DNA of 64,000 nt from a virus (taxonomy: Duplodnaviria > Caudoviricetes). This document shows, piece after piece, positions 30,933 through 41,206 of this stretch (the first letter of the stretch is position 1; each line of letters starts with the position of its first letter). The notes under the pieces were generated by a model, which searched no databases, was not told where the DNA came from, and was given only the letters and a program-made list of their open reading frames with translations. The stretch spans positions 84,118 to 148,117 of the IMG/VR virus record IMGVR_UViG_3300021426_000004. One strand, written 5' to 3'. The position numbers and the translations under genes were made by a program.

Positions 30933-31005
30933 GGGGAATTAGCTCATTCAGCAGAGCACTGCCTTTGCACGGCAGAGGTGACGGGAGCAAAGCCTGTATT
31001 CTTCA
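30933..31005 (+). tRNA. tRNA-Ala(TGC), atypical T-loop
   Basis: Acceptor GGGGAAT/ATTCTTC with G3-U70; CTGCC-TTTGCAC-GGCAG; T-loop AGCAAAG. Confidence 0.75.
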
Positions 31006-31734: not shown

Positions 31735-32244
31735 ATGAATAATGTAAAGTATGTAGCATCATGGAGACCAGAATCTGAAAAGTATTATACTGCTGATGCG
31801 CAGAAAGTTGCAGATGAAATTTTCGCTCTTGGAAAGAATCCTGATACAAAGGAAATTCTCGATATGGCAAGGAACGAAAATACTGAAATTCACAAAATTA
31901 TTGATTGGGATGATAATTCAGCTGCTGAAAAATACAGATTGGAACAAGTACGTCATATTCAGAGAGACTTGCAAATAGTTGAAATTGGTCTCAACAAAAA
32001 GGAACCAACTAAGAAATTGGAAGTTCCTGTTCGTATGTTTTATCATTTGCATGGCGAAACTGGCTATCGCCCTACTCCTTTGATAATTCAAGACGAAGAT
32101 TTGCATAAGAAATTACTTCGCACAGCAAAGCTTGAATTGGATTCATATTTAAAGAAATATGCAATTTTAACAGAAATGCATCCTTTGATTGAAGCAATTA
32201 ATAGTAAGCTCATCGAGCTGAAAATTTTTGATGAAGTAAGTTAA
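31735..32244 (+). CDS. Partner gene upstream of the pentamer RNA array
   Basis: 169 aa, AAGGAGGTG RBS; DAQKVADE...AR.E..EIHKIIDWDDNSAAEKYRLEQVR; stop is 6 nt before the array. Confidence 0.8.
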   Translation: MNNVKYVASWRPESEKYYTADAQKVADEIFALGKNPDTKEILDMARNENTEIHKIIDWDDNSAAEKYRLEQVRHIQRDLQIVEIGLNKKEPTKKLEVPVRMFYHLHGETGYRPTPLIIQDEDLHKKLLRTAKLELDSYLKKYAILTEMHPLIEAINSKLIELKIFDEVS

Positions 32245-32250
32245 AATATA

Positions 32251-32932
32251 CCTGTCGGTCTGATTAAGGATGCAATGCATCCTAAAATAGCAAAGTGCAT
32301 CATAACTGAACACAAGTTACGATAGGACATAATAGCACAAAACATTGCATCTTTACTCAGGCCGACAGGCTAACAATAGATCATAACAGTACAACATAGA
32401 TTACTATAACTCATTTTAATACACAATTGTGCCAACTCTGCGGTTGGCATAATTGGAGACTTGTTCTCCGTAGATTAGGATAGGATAGGATAATTTATGA
32501 AATCTTTGCATGGAATAGAACATTACAGTATAAAACAAGTCTTCAATTGTGCTAATCGCACAAAGCATAATACAGGATATTCAAGAATAATACATGACGG
32601 CGTAGGACACAATAATACTACCAATCCATTTGTGTGATTGGTACAATAAGTGGCTTATCAGTCCTAAGATAACATATCGTATTTTAACACATCATAATAT
32701 AGAACATTATTGAAATAAGCTTCTTATTGTGCCAGTGGCACAAATATACAATTGCATAGCCAATAATTGAATAGAACAGGATACATTATTATAAAATACT
32801 ATAACATTAATTGAGTAATTGGTATACTAAGAAGTCTATGACTTCTTAAGTATAGAACATATCGCTCTATAATAGAATATTTCTCTATAGCATAAAATAA
32901 AACACGAATAGACTTCTTGGTGTGCCAATTGC
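32251..32932 (+). ncRNA. Array of seven 5-nt-periodic (AYA-NN) tracts held by long stems; candidate guide-RNA array
   Basis: Near-invariant A every 5 nt; 19-27 bp stems whose deviations are mostly G-U, e.g. 32439-32465/32534-32560 and 32815-32839/32908-32932. Confidence 0.85.
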
Positions 32933-32980: not shown

Positions 32981-33637
32981 ATGCCGACTAAAGCTAAAGA
33001 AAATGCAAATCTGATTGATATTGAAGCTAAGATTAAAAGGATGCTTGTTACCATTGAAGGTGAAGGCGATCTGATTCTTAATAAAATGAACGCTCGCAAT
33101 GAACGTGCACTGACTGCAGATGATCGTAAGAGCATTAAAGAAGTACCTAATTTCTGGGAAGATGTTATTACTGCAATTCATTGGCGCGATCCTCTTCCTG
33201 TAAAAGACACATATACGGAATGCAATGAAGAACTTATGCATAGTCTACTCAAAGATAACGCTCCGTCTTTAAGTGCGTTTGCGTTGAAAAGAAGTTTCTG
33301 TGATGCTGTTGTTCGTAATGAAATTGATAACTATAAAACAAAATTCGAAAATGCAATTAATGTTACATCTGAAAATGGAAGAGAACTTATTCCTATTAAG
33401 TTTGCAGGTTGGGAGGCCGAAAAGAGGCTTATGAGTCCTAAGCGTGGTAAGCCGATTAATGTTGTTCTGAATCATTTCCATAACTGGTCTGCAAAATTTA
33501 TGGTAACTTATCTGGATCATGTTTATAGTCGAGATGAGATTCTGAATATTATTAATCTTGCAGGATTCGGCCTTGGAATTGGCAGTGGTCGGACAAGCGG
33601 TTATGGTCGTTATCATATTACAAATGTTGAAGTGTAA
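32981..33637 (+). CDS. Stand-alone Cas7/RAMP-like RNA-binding protein
   Basis: VTIEGEGDLILNK first strand, LSAFALKRSFCDA helix, and C-terminal G-loop GLGIGSGRTSGYGRY typical of RAMP proteins. Confidence 0.8.
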   Translation: MPTKAKENANLIDIEAKIKRMLVTIEGEGDLILNKMNARNERALTADDRKSIKEVPNFWEDVITAIHWRDPLPVKDTYTECNEELMHSLLKDNAPSLSAFALKRSFCDAVVRNEIDNYKTKFENAINVTSENGRELIPIKFAGWEAEKRLMSPKRGKPINVVLNHFHNWSAKFMVTYLDHVYSRDEILNIINLAGFGLGIGSGRTSGYGRYHITNVEV

Positions 33638-33927: not shown

Positions 33928-34001
33928 GGGGCATTGGTTCAACGGTAAAACGGTTCCCTTGCAAGGAACGGTTAGCAGTTCGATTCTGCTATGCTCCACC
34001 A
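33928..34001 (+). tRNA. tRNA-Ala(TGC)
   Basis: GGGGCAT/ATGCTCC-A-CCA, G3-U70, GTTCC-CTTGCAA-GGAAC, T-loop TTCGATT. Confidence 0.92.
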
Positions 34002-34097
34002 CAACCGAGGGCGACGTTAGGGCGGTTGTAAAATAAACTCTGAACAAGTCCCTGTCAAAAGCCGGCAAATGTTTGACATACTTGACGTCGTAGTTAT

Positions 34098-34168
34098 CGA
34101 GGATGTGGTGTAACGGTAACACGCGTCGCTTGGGCCGACGAGTAGCAGTTCAACTCTGACATCTTCGA
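34098..34168 (+). tRNA. tRNA-Pro(TGG), apparent 8/4 fold
   Basis: CGAGGATG/CATCTTCG, CGTCG-CTTGGGC-CGACG, short T-stem GCAG-TTCAACT-CTGA. Confidence 0.7.
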
Positions 34169-34279
34169 CTTTAACCGCCGATGAGTGTCGTACGTTTTGG
34201 CCAGCCTTGCGAAAGCAAGTGGGCGGTATATAAATTGAACTCCTTGTCTGTGTGTAGGTGCGACTGCACATAGCTGTAT

Positions 34280-34363
34280 GCGGATATGGCGAAATAGGCA
34301 GCACGCTCGGGTCTTAAAAACCCGTGGGTTAATCCCGTGTGGGTTCAAGTCCCACTATCCGCA
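34280..34363 (+). tRNA. tRNA-Leu(TAA)
   Basis: GCGGATA/TATCCGC, CGGGT-CTTAAAA-ACCCG, long variable arm, GGTTCAAGTCC. Confidence 0.9.
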
Positions 34364-34458
34364 CTGCCTCTGTGCTTTTACCAGATAGCGCAGAGGACAT
34401 CGTTTATAATATCCTTTCTTGCTCCCTGACGGCCGGGAGCATAATAGACCGTCATTTT

Positions 34459-36210: not shown

Positions 36211-36819
36211 ATGGTAAAGGTTTATGTGACTACGACTGGTGGACGGAAGAGTGATCTGTTTGACGAAGGCACGACGCTGCGTGAAGTGTTTGATGCATTT
36301 GATATCGACTATTCCGTTGCGACAAACACTATCGACGGTACAAGGATTGATCCTGCCGGGATGGACAAGTCTCTTCGTGACTGGGGAGTGAAGGATGAGT
36401 GCCGTATGTCCTCTATTGTTAAGATCGACAATGCGGCTCATATCGACATTTCCGGTGGTTCTGCTGTCCTGGTATCTGATGTCTCCAGGGAAGATTGGGA
36501 ACGTGTTGAGAAGTATGCGCCTGAAATGCTGAAGATGATTGACGATGAAGGTAACGCAGTCTTCAAGGTAAAGATTGGCTGCGGAGGAGGATCTGTTAAT
36601 AAGTATGGTGTGTGCTTCGGTTCTCATACGAATGAAGGCGGCAAGGCGACCGTTACTGTGATTCTGGATTATGAAGTTGAAGATAAGATTGCCGCTGTGA
36701 AGGATGTTATGGGTTCCGCTCTGCTGGATCTGAACGAGATCGAGAAGGAACTGCCGACTGTGCTGAAGGATATTGCTGACAAAGAAGCGGAGATTAACAA
36801 GCTTATTACGCTGAAGTAA
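36211..36819 (+). CDS. Ubiquitin-like (beta-grasp) domain with C-terminal extension
   Basis: First ~75 aa (VKVYVTT...TTLREVF...DKSLRDWGV...IVKIDNA) resemble Ubl; leads the E2/JAB/E1 operon. Confidence 0.65.
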   Translation: MVKVYVTTTGGRKSDLFDEGTTLREVFDAFDIDYSVATNTIDGTRIDPAGMDKSLRDWGVKDECRMSSIVKIDNAAHIDISGGSAVLVSDVSREDWERVEKYAPEMLKMIDDEGNAVFKVKIGCGGGSVNKYGVCFGSHTNEGGKATVTVILDYEVEDKIAAVKDVMGSALLDLNEIEKELPTVLKDIADKEAEINKLITLK

Positions 36820-36895
36820 TCTCCAAAACTAAAGACAACAAGGGGCTGGAACGATTATGATCCAGCCCCTTTTTTAACTAAGGAGATTAAAAAAT

Positions 36896-38338
36896 ATGTT
36901 TCGTGATTTACTTAATAATCCCATCGATCCCATCCCGATTGATTATATCAATACGCTGAGCAGACCGACAAAAGAAGTTGATATGACGTTAACTCATATC
37001 GGTATTGCCATGCTTCGGCCGAGAATTGAAAATTATACTGGCATCACTGGATGCTATCAAACTCTTTCAGAGGAATCAGCTTGTGTAAACGATTTTCTGA
37101 CTAATCAGTATCCGAAACTCGATAATGCACCAATGCTGTGTTATTATGTTTACAGGAATAAAAATGCTGATGGCGCTTCTGAAAAGCTGCTTAAAGAAAG
37201 TGGTTTTGAACTTAAGGAAAACATTTCCACGCTTATGGCTACAAAAGGAAATGTGAAATGTATTGCTGCGTATCATCCTGTAAAGAACTGCGCCGCCTTA
37301 TTTGTGAATTCTAACGATATTCGTTTCTATCATATGTTAATCTCGTTTGTTTCTCTGCTTTGGCCTAGCCTGTTCAAAGATAAACCTTTAACAGAACAGG
37401 ATTATAACATTGTCAAGGCTCTTGGGAAAACCGACAAGAACACTTTTATCCAGCAAATTCAGACAAGCATCGCACCTTACATTGTTGAATTCAGGAAGAT
37501 GATGCTTGCTACACTGCTTAAGAATATTCATCAGACTAAAATCGAAAGCGCAAAGCATGATGTAGCAGGACAGCGTCAGTATGTTGAAAAGGTAGCAAAC
37601 GATTATGATGAAGCTATGAAACGGCTGAAAACCCTCATTGTAACTTATGAAGGACTGAAAGCAACTGAATCTTTCGATGAGGTTGAGGAAGATTTGATTG
37701 AATATCTCTCTACCAAGAAAGAGCTGCATAATCTTAGTGTTGTAGGTCAGGAGATTACTTTCAGCGTTGCAACATTACTGAATAATTACAATGCAGATGC
37801 GTGGAGGATATTCTCTGAACGTGGTTCTATTTATGACGGAGAATATGGTCCGGAAGCGAATCCTTCAAACATTCAGCTTCTTGATGTATTCAAAGATAAA
37901 ACGAATCGCAAGATCTTCCTTGATAATGTGTTCTCTGAATCGCCTGACTTTGCGATTAAGATCGCTGGTAATTACAGGCTTGATCTTTATGGATGCAATG
38001 TAAGGAGCGAAAGAGGATATAATTATATTGCCGCAGATCCTGTTTATACTTCATATATTCCTAATCCGCATCTTAAGATTTTCTCGTGTCTTGGCGGTTA
38101 TGAAACAAGGATTAATCGTGCGCTTCGTGATCGTAATTATGTTGCGGCTGTTGAACTTTGCTGTACCTCTGCAGGTTCTGTAGATCTTGATGAAACTGCA
38201 CAGACATTTCGTCCGTTCCTTGGATGGATTCTGACAAGCCGTGAAAAGATTATGCACAGGCGGGATGGTGTAGATATGACACCAGAAGAAGCGCTGATTT
38301 GGCTGATTGATAAGGAGAAGAAGAATGAAACCAATTAA
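36896..38338 (+). CDS. Coiled-coil protein with putative E2-like C-terminal domain
   Basis: PNPHLKIFSCLGGY resembles the bacterial E2 PH...CLG signature; lies between Ubl and JAB. Confidence 0.55.
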   Translation: MFRDLLNNPIDPIPIDYINTLSRPTKEVDMTLTHIGIAMLRPRIENYTGITGCYQTLSEESACVNDFLTNQYPKLDNAPMLCYYVYRNKNADGASEKLLKESGFELKENISTLMATKGNVKCIAAYHPVKNCAALFVNSNDIRFYHMLISFVSLLWPSLFKDKPLTEQDYNIVKALGKTDKNTFIQQIQTSIAPYIVEFRKMMLATLLKNIHQTKIESAKHDVAGQRQYVEKVANDYDEAMKRLKTLIVTYEGLKATESFDEVEEDLIEYLSTKKELHNLSVVGQEITFSVATLLNNYNADAWRIFSERGSIYDGEYGPEANPSNIQLLDVFKDKTNRKIFLDNVFSESPDFAIKIAGNYRLDLYGCNVRSERGYNYIAADPVYTSYIPNPHLKIFSCLGGYETRINRALRDRNYVAAVELCCTSAGSVDLDETAQTFRPFLGWILTSREKIMHRRDGVDMTPEEALIWLIDKEKKNETN

Positions 38339-39104
38339 AATTACAGAAGAACTGGAAGAAAAGATTCTTTCAGACTTTATTCAGAAATTTCAGAAAGAAT
38401 GGACTCAGTTTAAAGAGAATATGAACGAGACAAAGTTCAACTTCTCTGTTCAGATGTCACAGAAAGCGAAAGAGAAGATTACTGTTCGTTATTCTCAATC
38501 TGCATATCTTAAAATGCAGGCACTTGTAGAGAATTTCGACACAGAAGTCGGCTGGTATGGATTTGTTAAACGTTTGGATGAAAACACATATTATGTTTAT
38601 GATGTAAAAGTCTGTAAGCAATATGTTACAAGCGGAAAGGTTGATACAGAAGATGAAGATACGCTGAAGTTCTTTGATTCTTTGACGGATGAAGAAATTG
38701 AGGATATGCATTTTCAGGCGCATTCTCATGTAAATATGTCTACAATGCCGTCCGGAACCGATCTTCAGAATCAGTCCGATGTTGTCAGAAATATGGGCAA
38801 CAAAGGATTCTATTTGTTCCAGATCTGGAATAAGCGAGGAGATATAAACAGTTTCCTGTATAACCTTGATGAAAACCTTTTCTATGATAGGAATGATATT
38901 GTTACTGAAATTGAAGGACTTGATGAGTTTATCCTATCTGTAGATGATCTGGTTATAGAACAAAAGACATATCCGTATCAATATTCTCCTTATCCTGTTC
39001 CCGTAAATCAAAAAGAGAAGACAACTAAAAAAAACGAAGAAAAAAGTCCGTATCTAAATGATTATTGGGATGGATGCAATTATAACGAAAGGTGGGATTG
39101 GTAA
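38325..39104 (+). CDS. JAB/JAMM metallopeptidase
   Basis: EVGW...HSHVNMSTMPSGTD matches the JAMM E-x-HSH-x7-S-x2-D motif. Confidence 0.88.
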   Translation: MKPIKITEELEEKILSDFIQKFQKEWTQFKENMNETKFNFSVQMSQKAKEKITVRYSQSAYLKMQALVENFDTEVGWYGFVKRLDENTYYVYDVKVCKQYVTSGKVDTEDEDTLKFFDSLTDEEIEDMHFQAHSHVNMSTMPSGTDLQNQSDVVRNMGNKGFYLFQIWNKRGDINSFLYNLDENLFYDRNDIVTEIEGLDEFILSVDDLVIEQKTYPYQYSPYPVPVNQKEKTTKKNEEKSPYLNDYWDGCNYNERWDW

Positions 39105-39776
39105 TTGAATCTTACAAAAAGTGCAGAGTTTTTCAATCCTGAAAGCGTTAAAGAAACAATTAACTTGATTGGATGTGGTTCTGTTGGATCTGCCGTTGCT
39201 GAGCTTCTTGCAAGGTTCGGACTGACTCGTGTCAATCTTTATGATTTTGACACGGTAGAAGAGCACAATCTTTCCAATCAGATGTTCACAACGAAGAATC
39301 TTTATAAACCTAAGCTCGAAGGTGTTTATGACAGATGGACTGAAATCAACCCTGAAGCAGCTAAGAACATCAAGCTATTTGGGGATGGCTGGGACGGCCA
39401 GAAACTTTCTGGATATGTATTCCTTTGCGTAGATAATATCGAATTACGCAAACGAATCGTTGAAGAAAATAAGTATAACATCAACATAAAGGCTATGTTT
39501 GATTTTAGGACGGCTCTTGTTTCAGCGCAGCATTATGCGGCAGACTGGAGCAAGGACGAAGACATTGCTGCATTTCTTGATACGATGGACTTTACCCACG
39601 CTGAAGCAGAAAAGAATGTTCCAGTAAGTGCTTGTAAGGTATCTTTGTGCGTAATGCCAACCGTATGGAGTGTGGCAATGGCCGGAGTTGTGAACTTCGT
39701 TAATTTCGTAAAAGAAGGAAAACTGGAAAAGGCAATGATTCTTAAGCCTTTTGATTTCGAAACTTTAATTCTGTGA
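39105..39776 (+). CDS. ThiF/E1-like adenylating enzyme
   Basis: IGCGSVGS, DFDTVEEHNLSNQ, CVDN...R and a candidate catalytic Cys in VSAC. Confidence 0.92.
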   Translation: MNLTKSAEFFNPESVKETINLIGCGSVGSAVAELLARFGLTRVNLYDFDTVEEHNLSNQMFTTKNLYKPKLEGVYDRWTEINPEAAKNIKLFGDGWDGQKLSGYVFLCVDNIELRKRIVEENKYNINIKAMFDFRTALVSAQHYAADWSKDEDIAAFLDTMDFTHAEAEKNVPVSACKVSLCVMPTVWSVAMAGVVNFVNFVKEGKLEKAMILKPFDFETLIL

Positions 39777-40038
39777 TTCATAAAGACCAAAAATGTTCAA
39801 TCATTAGCAGTTTATGTTATAAGCTGAATCATTTTGCTCGGAGAAGAAGAAGAAGAGCCAGACCGACGCCTCCGCCGGTCTGGCTCTTGGGAAATTCAGG
39901 AAATAACAGTCAGAAAGATGAAGATCAATAAATAGAAACGGGTAAGACGACTGGAAATGGCCAAATAGCAGGGAAATTCACTTAAACATGCTGCAAGATC
40001 CGGACTATTTCCAGGTAAGACTGTAGAGAGTTTATGAA
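39777..40038 (+). ncRNA. Candidate retron-like ncRNA upstream of the RT
   Basis: Terminal IR TTCATAAA(G)/TTTATGAA; 13-bp hairpin 39853-39888; nested ACAGTC/GACTGT and CTGGAAAT/ATTTCCAG stems. Confidence 0.5.
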
Positions 40039-40057
40039 GCAACAGAAAGGATAACAA

Positions 40058-41206
40058 ATGATTTATATTACTTCACATCAGCATAGAAAACCAAGAACAA
40101 TAACATGGGAAGATGTCATTGCTGATAAAATTGTTTTTAATGACATGGCTAATGATGTTTCAAACTACACAGGCACAATAACAAGAAAACTCTCGGAAAT
40201 TGATTCAGCAATGTTAAAAAAGATTAACATAGACGGAATGATCCAATGGCTGGAATCGTATAATAATGAAAATGAGGAATTATTCAAAGCAAGAAGACAA
40301 GATCTTTACTCTTCATTTATGATCCCAAAAGCAACTGGAGGGTTTAGACGCATTGATAATCCTTGCGACAAACTACAAAACGCTTTAAGGAAATTAAGTA
40401 CATTTCTGACAGAAGACTGTGGACTTTTGTATCATACTGCAGCATTTGCGTATGTTAAAGGAAGAAGTATTGTAGATTGCTTGAGAAAACATCAGAGAAA
40501 TAACTCGAACTGGTTTCTTAAAACGGATTTCAGCGGCTTCTTTCCGAATACTACTTTGGAATTTACTATGAAAATGCTGAAAATGATATTTCCTTTATCT
40601 GAAATATGTAAAAGGAATGACGGTTATAAAGCGTTAAGAAAGGCTATAAGCTTAGGATTCCTGAACGGTGGATTACCCCAAGGAACGGTATTGTCGCCTA
40701 CACTTACAAACATAATTTGTATTCCTATTGATTATCGTCTGTTTAATAGATTTTCTGATATGAAAATTGTGTACACAAGATATGCAGATGATATGCATAT
40801 TTCAGCAGAAAGCAAATTTCCAAAAGAGAAAGCAATTCAAATAATCAATGAAACGCTTGAAAAGTTTGGAGCTCCTTGGGAGCTGAAACCTGAAAAGACG
40901 CATTATGGTAACAGAAAGGGTAAGAACTGGTGCCTTGGATTACTGATCAATGCACAAAATAATATCAGCGTAGGAGATAAGAAGAAGAAATATTTCCAGG
41001 CAGCGCTTAATTCGTTTATTCTGGATACCAAGAATAATAAGCTGTGGAACATGGAAGATGTTGTACATCTGAATGGTTTGCTGTCTTATTACAAGATGGT
41101 TGAAAAAGAATACTTTATGAAGACTATTGAAAAATATAACAAAAAGTATTCAGTTGATGTACACGAAATGTTTAAAAGTTATATGAACGGTAGTTTAGCA
41201 GCATAA
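40058..41206 (+). CDS. Retron-like reverse transcriptase
   Basis: IPKATGGFRRID, AFAYVKGRS, KTDFSGFF, LPQGTVLSP, YTRYADD, and WCLGL in place of VTGL; no maturase or endonuclease domain. Confidence 0.9.
   Translation: MIYITSHQHRKPRTITWEDVIADKIVFNDMANDVSNYTGTITRKLSEIDSAMLKKINIDGMIQWLESYNNENEELFKARRQDLYSSFMIPKATGGFRRIDNPCDKLQNALRKLSTFLTEDCGLLYHTAAFAYVKGRSIVDCLRKHQRNNSNWFLKTDFSGFFPNTTLEFTMKMLKMIFPLSEICKRNDGYKALRKAISLGFLNGGLPQGTVLSPTLTNIICIPIDYRLFNRFSDMKIVYTRYADDMHISAESKFPKEKAIQIINETLEKFGAPWELKPEKTHYGNRKGKNWCLGLLINAQNNISVGDKKKKYFQAALNSFILDTKNNKLWNMEDVVHLNGLLSYYKMVEKEYFMKTIEKYNKKYSVDVHEMFKSYMNGSLAA

Follow-up and report, generated by a model that had tools for sequence, protein, structure and literature searches.

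The locus and its genes

The DNA considered here (the window) is a stretch of 64,000 nucleotides from a complete virus record of 148,117 bp with direct terminal repeats, and this genome encodes a portal protein, a terminase, a DNA polymerase and a primase-helicase according to family searches of the neighbouring genes. The region of interest lies between two genes of the same strand and is organised as follows:

31735 to 32244, + strand: accessory (vap-like) gene P0002, 169 amino acids, which stops 6 nt before the first stem
between 32244 and 32981, + strand: gap of about 735 nt without open reading frames
32981 to 33637, + strand: Vipr-like gene P0001, encoding a 218-amino-acid Cas7-like RAMP protein with the G-loop GIGSGRTSGYG

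Thus the RAMP gene and its partner gene, which the preliminary description of this DNA had assumed, do adjoin the stems of the gap. No DNA similarity of the array region to deposited phages was found. Rfam searches of this region at gathering and permissive thresholds returned only tRNAs and chance-level matches, tRNA was the sole Rfam family found in the whole window, and the CRISPR direct-repeat families gave no match. ARAGORN placed no tRNA in the array region, by which tRNA-like array units were ruled out. Homologues of cas1, cas2 and cas6 were absent from family searches covering part of the open reading frames of the window, and Pfam, PHROGs and NCBIfam searches of the neighbouring genes revealed no cas gene.

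The wider surroundings of the module include flanking tRNA genes, with Ala(tgc) upstream at 30933-31005 and Ala(tgc), Pro(tgg) and Leu(taa) at 33928-34364, about 300 nt downstream of the RAMP gene. Further on, at 36211-41206, there is a set of co-oriented genes that comprises a weak JAB-like match (38307-39104), a ThiF/E1-like protein (39105-39776; Pfam ThiF, E 6e-18) and a 382-amino-acid reverse transcriptase (40058-41206; RVT_1 E 1.8e-19; phrog_2825). A functional tie to this reverse transcriptase, 7 kb downstream, was considered and dropped, since the module of array and RAMP gene recurs in related loci whatever the wider gene context.

The RAMP protein was modelled by AF2 (pLDDT 87.9, pTM 0.81), and the top Foldseek matches of the model were all Cas7 proteins (Cmr4, Csm3 and type VII Cas7) with probability 1.0, the best being Cmr4 6s6b_I (E 7.7e-7), followed by Csm3 chains. 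At the sequence level the Pfam RAMPs family matched below threshold (E 0.019), and the homologues form more than 2000 clusters at 90% identity, none of which carries a functional name. When the profile of this family was compared with the PDB, the top match was entry 36pp, 'SUSP1 Vipr protein', the similarity being marginal (E 0.009) and confined to the C-terminal 58 residues.

The accessory protein (AF2 pLDDT 85.6) matches phrog_15946, a family of unknown function, with E 2.5e-13, and in 70 of 79 related viral loci the array is directly preceded by a gene with its C-terminal motif. Its model gave no significant fold match, and Pfam and NCBIfam gave no match to the sequence; the near-significant PDB sequence matches were two designed proteins only and were taken as chance.

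VIPR (Viral Interference Programmable Repeat), a relative of CRISPR first described in 2026, is a system of Vipr, vrRNA and vap, borne mainly by phages or proviruses in a small locus of vipr and one vap gene that has neither a CRISPR array nor other cas genes; Vipr itself is a minimal single-RRM Cas7-like RAMP protein with a glycine-rich loop and a thumb. In the available text of two 2026 preprints the system is represented in its Type II form by Escherichia phage SUSP1 and a Pseudomonas fulva prophage (bioRxiv 10.64898/2026.04.26.720920; 10.64898/2026.04.26.720927; PDB 36pp). According to the same text the minimal Cas7-like Vipr polymerises on vrRNAs of 9-16 five-nucleotide repeats, locks the GGY triplet and exposes two variable bases per repeat, DNA being read with one base skipped per repeat, and residues D177 and W178 of SUSP1 Vipr contact the two guanines of the triplet (10.64898/2026.04.26.720920; 10.64898/2026.04.26.720927). 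In the profile alignment these two G-loop residues align with Ser and Gly in the family described here, and R179 is kept. Judging from the sequence, the replacement of the guanine-contacting D177 and W178 would fit an altered triplet specificity.

Pentamer tracts

Autocorrelation revealed a sharp 5-nt periodicity throughout the array region, and the seven tracts, each of about 9-14 pentamers, all carry A at pentamer positions 1 and 3. Four of these tracts are hairpin loops of 56-68 nt and three are inter-hairpin stretches:

32278 to 32342, + strand: guide tract 1, loop of hairpin H1
32370 to 32438, + strand: guide tract 2, between H1 and H2; eleven A-N-A-N-N pentamers followed by an arm-like motif at 32424-32436
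32466 to 32533, + strand: guide tract 3, loop of H2
32561 to 32632, + strand: guide tract 4, between H2 and H3, pentamer-periodic
32659 to 32714, + strand: guide tract 5, loop of H3
32741 to 32814, + strand: guide tract 6, between H3 and H4
32840 to 32907, + strand: guide tract 7, loop of H4

The fixed triplet in the window is A-H-A, within a repeat A-H-A-N-N, and its register lies on the plus strand in all seven tracts. Between the arm-like motif of tract 2 and the outer 5' arm of H2 local pairing is possible, giving a hairpin at 32424-32455 of -18.0 kcal/mol. Of 79 related viral loci, 78 have period-5 A.A tracts in the stretch of about 1 kb that precedes the RAMP gene, and the pentamer logo of the family (A.68 / H, that is C/T/A with little G / A.80 / N / N) is equal in 156 loops and 59 inter-hairpin gaps of the related arrays. 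A fixed pentamer register between both loop ends was rejected, the loop lengths of the H1 class not being constant modulo 5.

The combination of a minimal Cas7-like RAMP protein, a 5-nt repeat array and an accessory gene in a phage points to VIPR, and the region is very probably a phage VIPR guide-RNA (vrRNA) array, in which four conserved hairpins bracket alternate tracts and the stems act as marks of the unit boundaries.

The arrangement of such tracts varies among the related loci. In loci L042, L076 and L040 the array that precedes the RAMP gene is much longer, its pentamer tracts amounting to as much as about 1.7-1.9 kb, and L076 has eight long hairpins. In L057 (+993..+1479), L003, L070, L071 and L073 pentamer tracts occur downstream of the RAMP gene, where they replace the upstream ones or add to them, an arrangement reminiscent of phage SUSP1, for which a two-sided layout was reported.

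Four cognate hairpins

The six stems listed in the preliminary description were all recovered on recounting, ungapped and with coordinates and pair counts unchanged, and the minimum-energy RNA fold of the region holds four of them as long hairpins:

32251 to 32369, + strand: hairpin H1, arms 32251-32277/32343-32369 of 27 nt; 24 Watson-Crick pairs, 2 G-U pairs and 1 mismatch; -42.5 kcal/mol, pair probability 0.95
32439 to 32560, + strand: hairpin H2, arms 32439-32465/32534-32560; 23 Watson-Crick and 4 G-U pairs; -40.3 kcal/mol, pair probability 0.98
32633 to 32740, + strand: hairpin H3, arms 32633-32658/32715-32740 (lengthened to 32628/32745 in the minimum-energy fold); 20 Watson-Crick pairs, 4 G-U pairs and 2 mismatches; -31.9 kcal/mol, pair probability 0.90
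32815 to 32932, + strand: hairpin H4, arms 32815-32839/32908-32932; 21 Watson-Crick and 4 G-U pairs; -35.9 kcal/mol, pair probability 0.99

By the partition function these four cognate hairpins, of 25-29 bp each, have mean pair probabilities of 0.90-0.99. They enclose tracts 1, 3, 5 and 7, with tracts 2, 4 and 6 between them, and in this respect the stems delimit the units of the array as had been claimed. For the plus-strand RNA a folding energy of -196 kcal/mol was obtained (z = -12.3 relative to dinucleotide shuffles), compared with z = -5.1 for the minus-strand fold. The non-Watson-Crick positions of all six stems amount to 21 G-U, 0 A-C and 6 other, and in the four cognate stems the ratio of G-U to A-C is 14:0.

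A separate observation concerns a 19/21-nt direct match between the inner 5' arm and loop start of H3 (32648-32668) and the RAMP coding sequence (33422-33442, at the RLMSPK motif). It is improbable by chance within 2.3 kb, yet it is not conserved in 52 relatives and was set aside.

Conservation across related arrays

Stems in the related arrays were sought by a detector that scored Watson-Crick matches only and is hence strand-symmetric. In 78 arrays (40 kb) it identified 180 long inverted repeats, 138 of them distinct, with a median arm of 26 nt and a median loop of 74 nt, against 0 in shuffled arrays and 0 in 34 kb of DNA downstream of RAMP genes. Long hairpins are present in 74 of these 78 arrays, and in the other 4 none was found at the detector thresholds used. 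Among the 138 distinct stems G-U exceeds A-C by 279:63, and such an excess shows selection on the plus-strand RNA, an interpretation already offered for the window and now extended to its relatives.

The G-U pairs are also ordered within the stems. Pairs whose G lies in the 5' arm are concentrated at positions 8-10 of the stem, counted from the loop (91 pairs in the 138 stems), the G at this place belonging to the 5' arm in nearly all stems, while mismatches cluster at positions 13-14 and U-G pairs at 17-19. In H1 orthologues from 10 loci there are 26 consensus pairs, 10 of which have compensatory changes; the inner 12 bp of these H1-class stems are invariant in sequence, and the covariation falls in the outer half. 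Comparison of the window with a 99%-identical relative revealed differences at 16 of 736 array positions, and all six of those located in stems keep or restore pairing.

In 11 close relatives the arms are near-invariant, with one or two variants each, and almost every tract, whether enclosed or intervening, has a sequence and a length of its own. Since the arms are conserved and the tracts hypervariable, the arms can be regarded as repeat-like and the tracts as spacer-like. The same pattern of near-identical arms around wholly different tracts would be expected of cassette exchange within the arms, and it could be supposed that the inverted repeats act mainly at the DNA level, as recombination sites for guide swapping between phages or as cruciforms. 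This explanation is quite unlikely, because the G-U excess with its fixed polarity and position would not be expected of a DNA-level palindrome and the plus-strand fold is far more stable than that of the minus strand; recombination could still be a secondary consequence.

The spacing of the hairpins differs within the family: in the subclade L056-L077 many hairpins abut, with gaps of 0-20 nt that leave few inter-hairpin tracts, and in the clade of the window gaps of about 56-100 nt form additional tracts.

Neighbour pairing and array growth

The other two of the six stems join arms of adjacent hairpins:

32546 to 32564 with 32629 to 32647, + strand: neighbour pairing of the H2 3' arm and the H3 5' arm across tract 4; 19 bp, 16 Watson-Crick and 3 G-U pairs; -24.4 kcal/mol, mean pair probability about 0
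32721 to 32743 with 32811 to 32833, + strand: neighbour pairing of the H3 3' arm and the H4 5' arm across tract 6; 23 positions, 16 Watson-Crick pairs, 4 G-U pairs and 3 mismatches; -16.8 kcal/mol, mean pair probability about 0

In the preliminary description these were considered, together with the cognate hairpins, as interlocking and mutually exclusive stems. The complementarities are real, their deviations are only or mostly G-U, and similar neighbour pairing occurs in some relatives (-25.2 kcal/mol in L082 and -27.8 kcal/mol in L087), but a functional alternative fold, in which each linker would pick its partner so that every tract could be presented as a loop, is very unlikely. Their predicted occupancy is about zero, the fold becomes less stable by about 29 kcal/mol when both of them are enforced, and if folding proceeds 5' to 3', each cognate 3' arm is already available when the following 5' arm is synthesised. 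Of 89 neighbour pairs in the relatives only 30 come to -15 kcal/mol, and the majority do not surpass shuffled sequences; the strong cases are confined to neighbours of the same stem class, and the pairing is always weaker than that of the cognate stems.

The origin of these complementarities can be seen in the units themselves. H2, H3 and H4 align head-to-tail at 71% column identity, which, with the common plus-strand register of the tracts, contradicts the growth by inverted duplication proposed earlier, and together with the fixed G-U polarity argues for growth by direct duplication of whole hairpin units. The motif that had been described as alternating in orientation does so only in appearance, being one half of a near-palindromic sequence of the outer arms, such as UUGUGCC-AGU-GGCACAA at 32727-32743. 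Neighbouring arms are therefore complementary because H2-H4 are tandem direct duplicates with near-palindromic outer arms; neighbour pairing looks like a by-product of unit duplication and not a switch, and the interlock is apparently of little importance for this reason.

Proposed guide function of the tracts

Targets were searched for with gapped patterns from tracts 1, 2 and 5 built according to the 1-nt-skip rule, exact matches only. Patterns of 20-22 specified bases gave no match for tracts 1 and 2 in viral contigs, for tract 2 in genome contigs or for tract 1 in metagenome contigs, and shorter seeds of 16-18 specified bases gave 8 matches, none extending beyond the seed. Being restricted to exact matches, these searches are weak negative evidence. 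With no target found, the guide function of the A-H-A tracts is suggested by analogy and by their hypervariability, and the guides would be expected to target DNA.

Binding sites of TRAP have a periodicity of a triplet plus a 2-nt spacer. The period of the present tracts, with 11-13 units per tract, resembles such sites, and this likeness, together with the lack of a convincing target, could be explained if the A-H-A tracts were not guides but scaffold or sponge RNA wrapped in the manner of TRAP by a ring-shaped or helical protein, the variable bases being non-targeting. The proposal is extremely improbable, as the adjoining protein has a Cas7 fold and its family profile matches SUSP1 Vipr, the tracts turn over fully among close relatives between fixed arms in a spacer-like manner, and published VIPR shows the same 5-nt logic; a TRAP-like ring-binding RNA was accordingly dropped after the Cas7 fold and the VIPR literature had been taken into account.

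Competing mini-hairpins

The conserved fold that does compete with the long stems is a small hairpin which the loop tracts carry at their 5' edge. In the window the following small hairpins are found:

32267 to 32283, + strand: mini-hairpin of H1, AGGAUGC-AAU-GCAUCCU, composed of the inner 5' arm and the first 6 loop nucleotides; -9.5 kcal/mol
32455 to 32469, + strand: mini-hairpin of H2; -6.2 kcal/mol
32727 to 32743, + strand: self-hairpin in the 3' arm of H3; -8.1 kcal/mol
32826 to 32851, + strand: mini-hairpin of H4; -9.6 kcal/mol (-12.6 kcal/mol in a local-only fold)

A local hairpin of about 7 bp, formed by the inner 5' arm and the first approximately 7 nucleotides of the loop and counted as present at -5 kcal/mol or better, occurs in 90% of 150 distinct family units. 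Its mean energy in the family is -8.3 kcal/mol, against -4.0 kcal/mol in shuffles and -1.15 kcal/mol at the mirror position on the 3' side. Of the guanines engaged in G-U pairs at positions 8-10 of the long stem, 66% pair with C in the mini-hairpin. In 80% of cases a second small hairpin occupies the outer 3' arm together with the beginning of the inter-hairpin tract. The conserved structures adjoining the tracts are the long closing stems, the small hairpins at the 5' edge and the small hairpins at the end of the 3' arm.

Proposed maturation of the guides and possible role of the stems

According to the proposed scheme, the array would be transcribed with the RAMP gene or ahead of it, and the long stems would mark the unit boundaries on the precursor RNA. 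Vipr (32981-33637) would be expected to polymerise along the 5-nt repeat tracts, holding the fixed triplet and exposing the two variable bases. The boundary could be set by host RNase III-type cleavage of the stems, by stopping of the Vipr filament, or by both.

RNase III cuts double-stranded RNA of about 20 bp or more and leaves 2-nt 3' overhangs, and near-perfect duplexes of 25-29 bp are of a size typical for its substrates. The cognate stems of the window are within this range, as is the family median of 26. PF14622 detects no RNase III gene in the phage, and the enzyme would have to come from the host. Such processing is plausible, and the chance that the long stems are cut by a host RNase III-type enzyme may be put slightly below even. 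A mid-stem cut would yield RNAs of about 90 nt, which is near the length of the published vrRNAs, described in the available preprint text as approximately 100 nt long with a conserved structured tail beside the repeat tract (10.64898/2026.04.26.720920; 10.64898/2026.04.26.720927).

This tail, as far as that text describes it, favours another, less likely explanation, namely that each stem is the structural handle of a guide, a counterpart of the published 3' tail and not a cleavage signal, which would set the start or stop of the Vipr filament and shield the ends, any cutting being left to single-strand nucleases or to the accessory protein. The sequence conservation of the inner half of the stem, with its fixed G-U at positions 8-10 and mismatch at 13-14, suggests specific recognition, and the lack of an RNase III gene in the phage by PF14622 agrees with a handle as well. 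Nevertheless a near-perfect duplex of 25-29 bp exceeds the need of a handle, and many relatives have inter-hairpin tracts that would be left with no handle unless the small local hairpins act as one.

Returning to stems as boundary signals, the mini-hairpin would probably form first, either during transcription or after cleavage, compete with the inner half of the long stem and cap the mature guide. It can be suggested tentatively that the guides of this clade mature by a two-state fold, in which the 26-bp stem, weakened by G-U at a fixed position, would be the cut or boundary signal on the precursor, after which the 5' mini-hairpin would capture the inner 5' arm and so leave the 3' side of the tract open to loading by Vipr. 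If true, this two-state guide biogenesis would be a mechanism not described for VIPR or CRISPR, and a second recognition alphabet (A-H-A) would come with it, as would a different G-loop. It may also be of interest since guide excision from VIPR arrays is not explained for most array types in the available text, and it gives testable predictions on guide maturation and on the reading of the repeats by the protein.

Comparison with known systems

The system belongs to the published VIPR family and is a variant of it both in the triplet and in the hairpin-bracketed layout of the array. It shares with VIPR of SUSP1 and the P. fulva prophage the two-gene phage locus of a minimal Cas7-like RAMP protein and an accessory gene, the non-coding 5-nt repeats, about 9-16 per guide, in which two variable bases accompany a fixed triplet, the hypervariability of the tracts and, possibly, the conserved structured element beside each of them. 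The differences concern the triplet, which is G-G-Y in the published systems and A-H-A in the array of the window; the G-loop, where D177/W178 of SUSP1 Vipr are opposed to Ser/Gly in the family of the window, R179 being common to both; and the position of the array, which, unlike in published VIPR, sits between the vap and vipr genes. Furthermore, the published form has a 3' hairpin-pseudoknot tail, whereas here every other guide forms the loop of a 25-29-bp hairpin with which a 5' mini-hairpin competes. The array types given in the available preprint text are type II, staggered, hammerhead-interspersed and single-guide, and this text makes no mention of long closing stems or RNase III (10.64898/2026.04.26.720920; 10.64898/2026.04.26.720927).

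A genomic language model study, in its available text, reported period-5 arrays with the non-GGY triplets GAC, CAC, WGT and TGH beside Vipr-like folds (bioRxiv 10.64898/2026.10.21.760802). These non-canonical arrays resemble the present one in their period and in a fixed triplet other than GGY, which indicates that the triplet can vary; in the same available text A-H-A is not named and hairpin bracketing is not described (10.64898/2026.10.21.760802).

Two other systems, each comparable with the array in part, are the CRISPR arrays with hairpin repeats and the RNase III stalks. Cas6-processed pre-crRNA likewise has conserved repeat modules alternating with hypervariable guides and employs a RAMP protein, but, unlike in CRISPR, the repeat modules in the window are inverted pairs which enclose a guide, and the guides carry an internal 5-nt code. 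In rRNA operons, phage T7 early mRNA and the type II tracrRNA:pre-crRNA pairs, long near-perfect duplexes of about two helical turns bracket the RNA that is released. The array is similar in that a long near-perfect duplex brackets a functional RNA, its cleavage here being a prediction, and its stems differ in having a pattern of G-U pairs and mismatches specific to the family, besides a competing local hairpin; neither is a known need of RNase III stalks.

In summary, this clade, which with its more than 2000 RAMP protein clusters is very abundant in gut viromes, has a distinct and strongly conserved design of long closing stems, a competing mini-hairpin and a different fixed triplet, and for the annotation of such arrays it provides a simple rule, by which the hairpin arms are treated as the repeats and the tracts as the guides.
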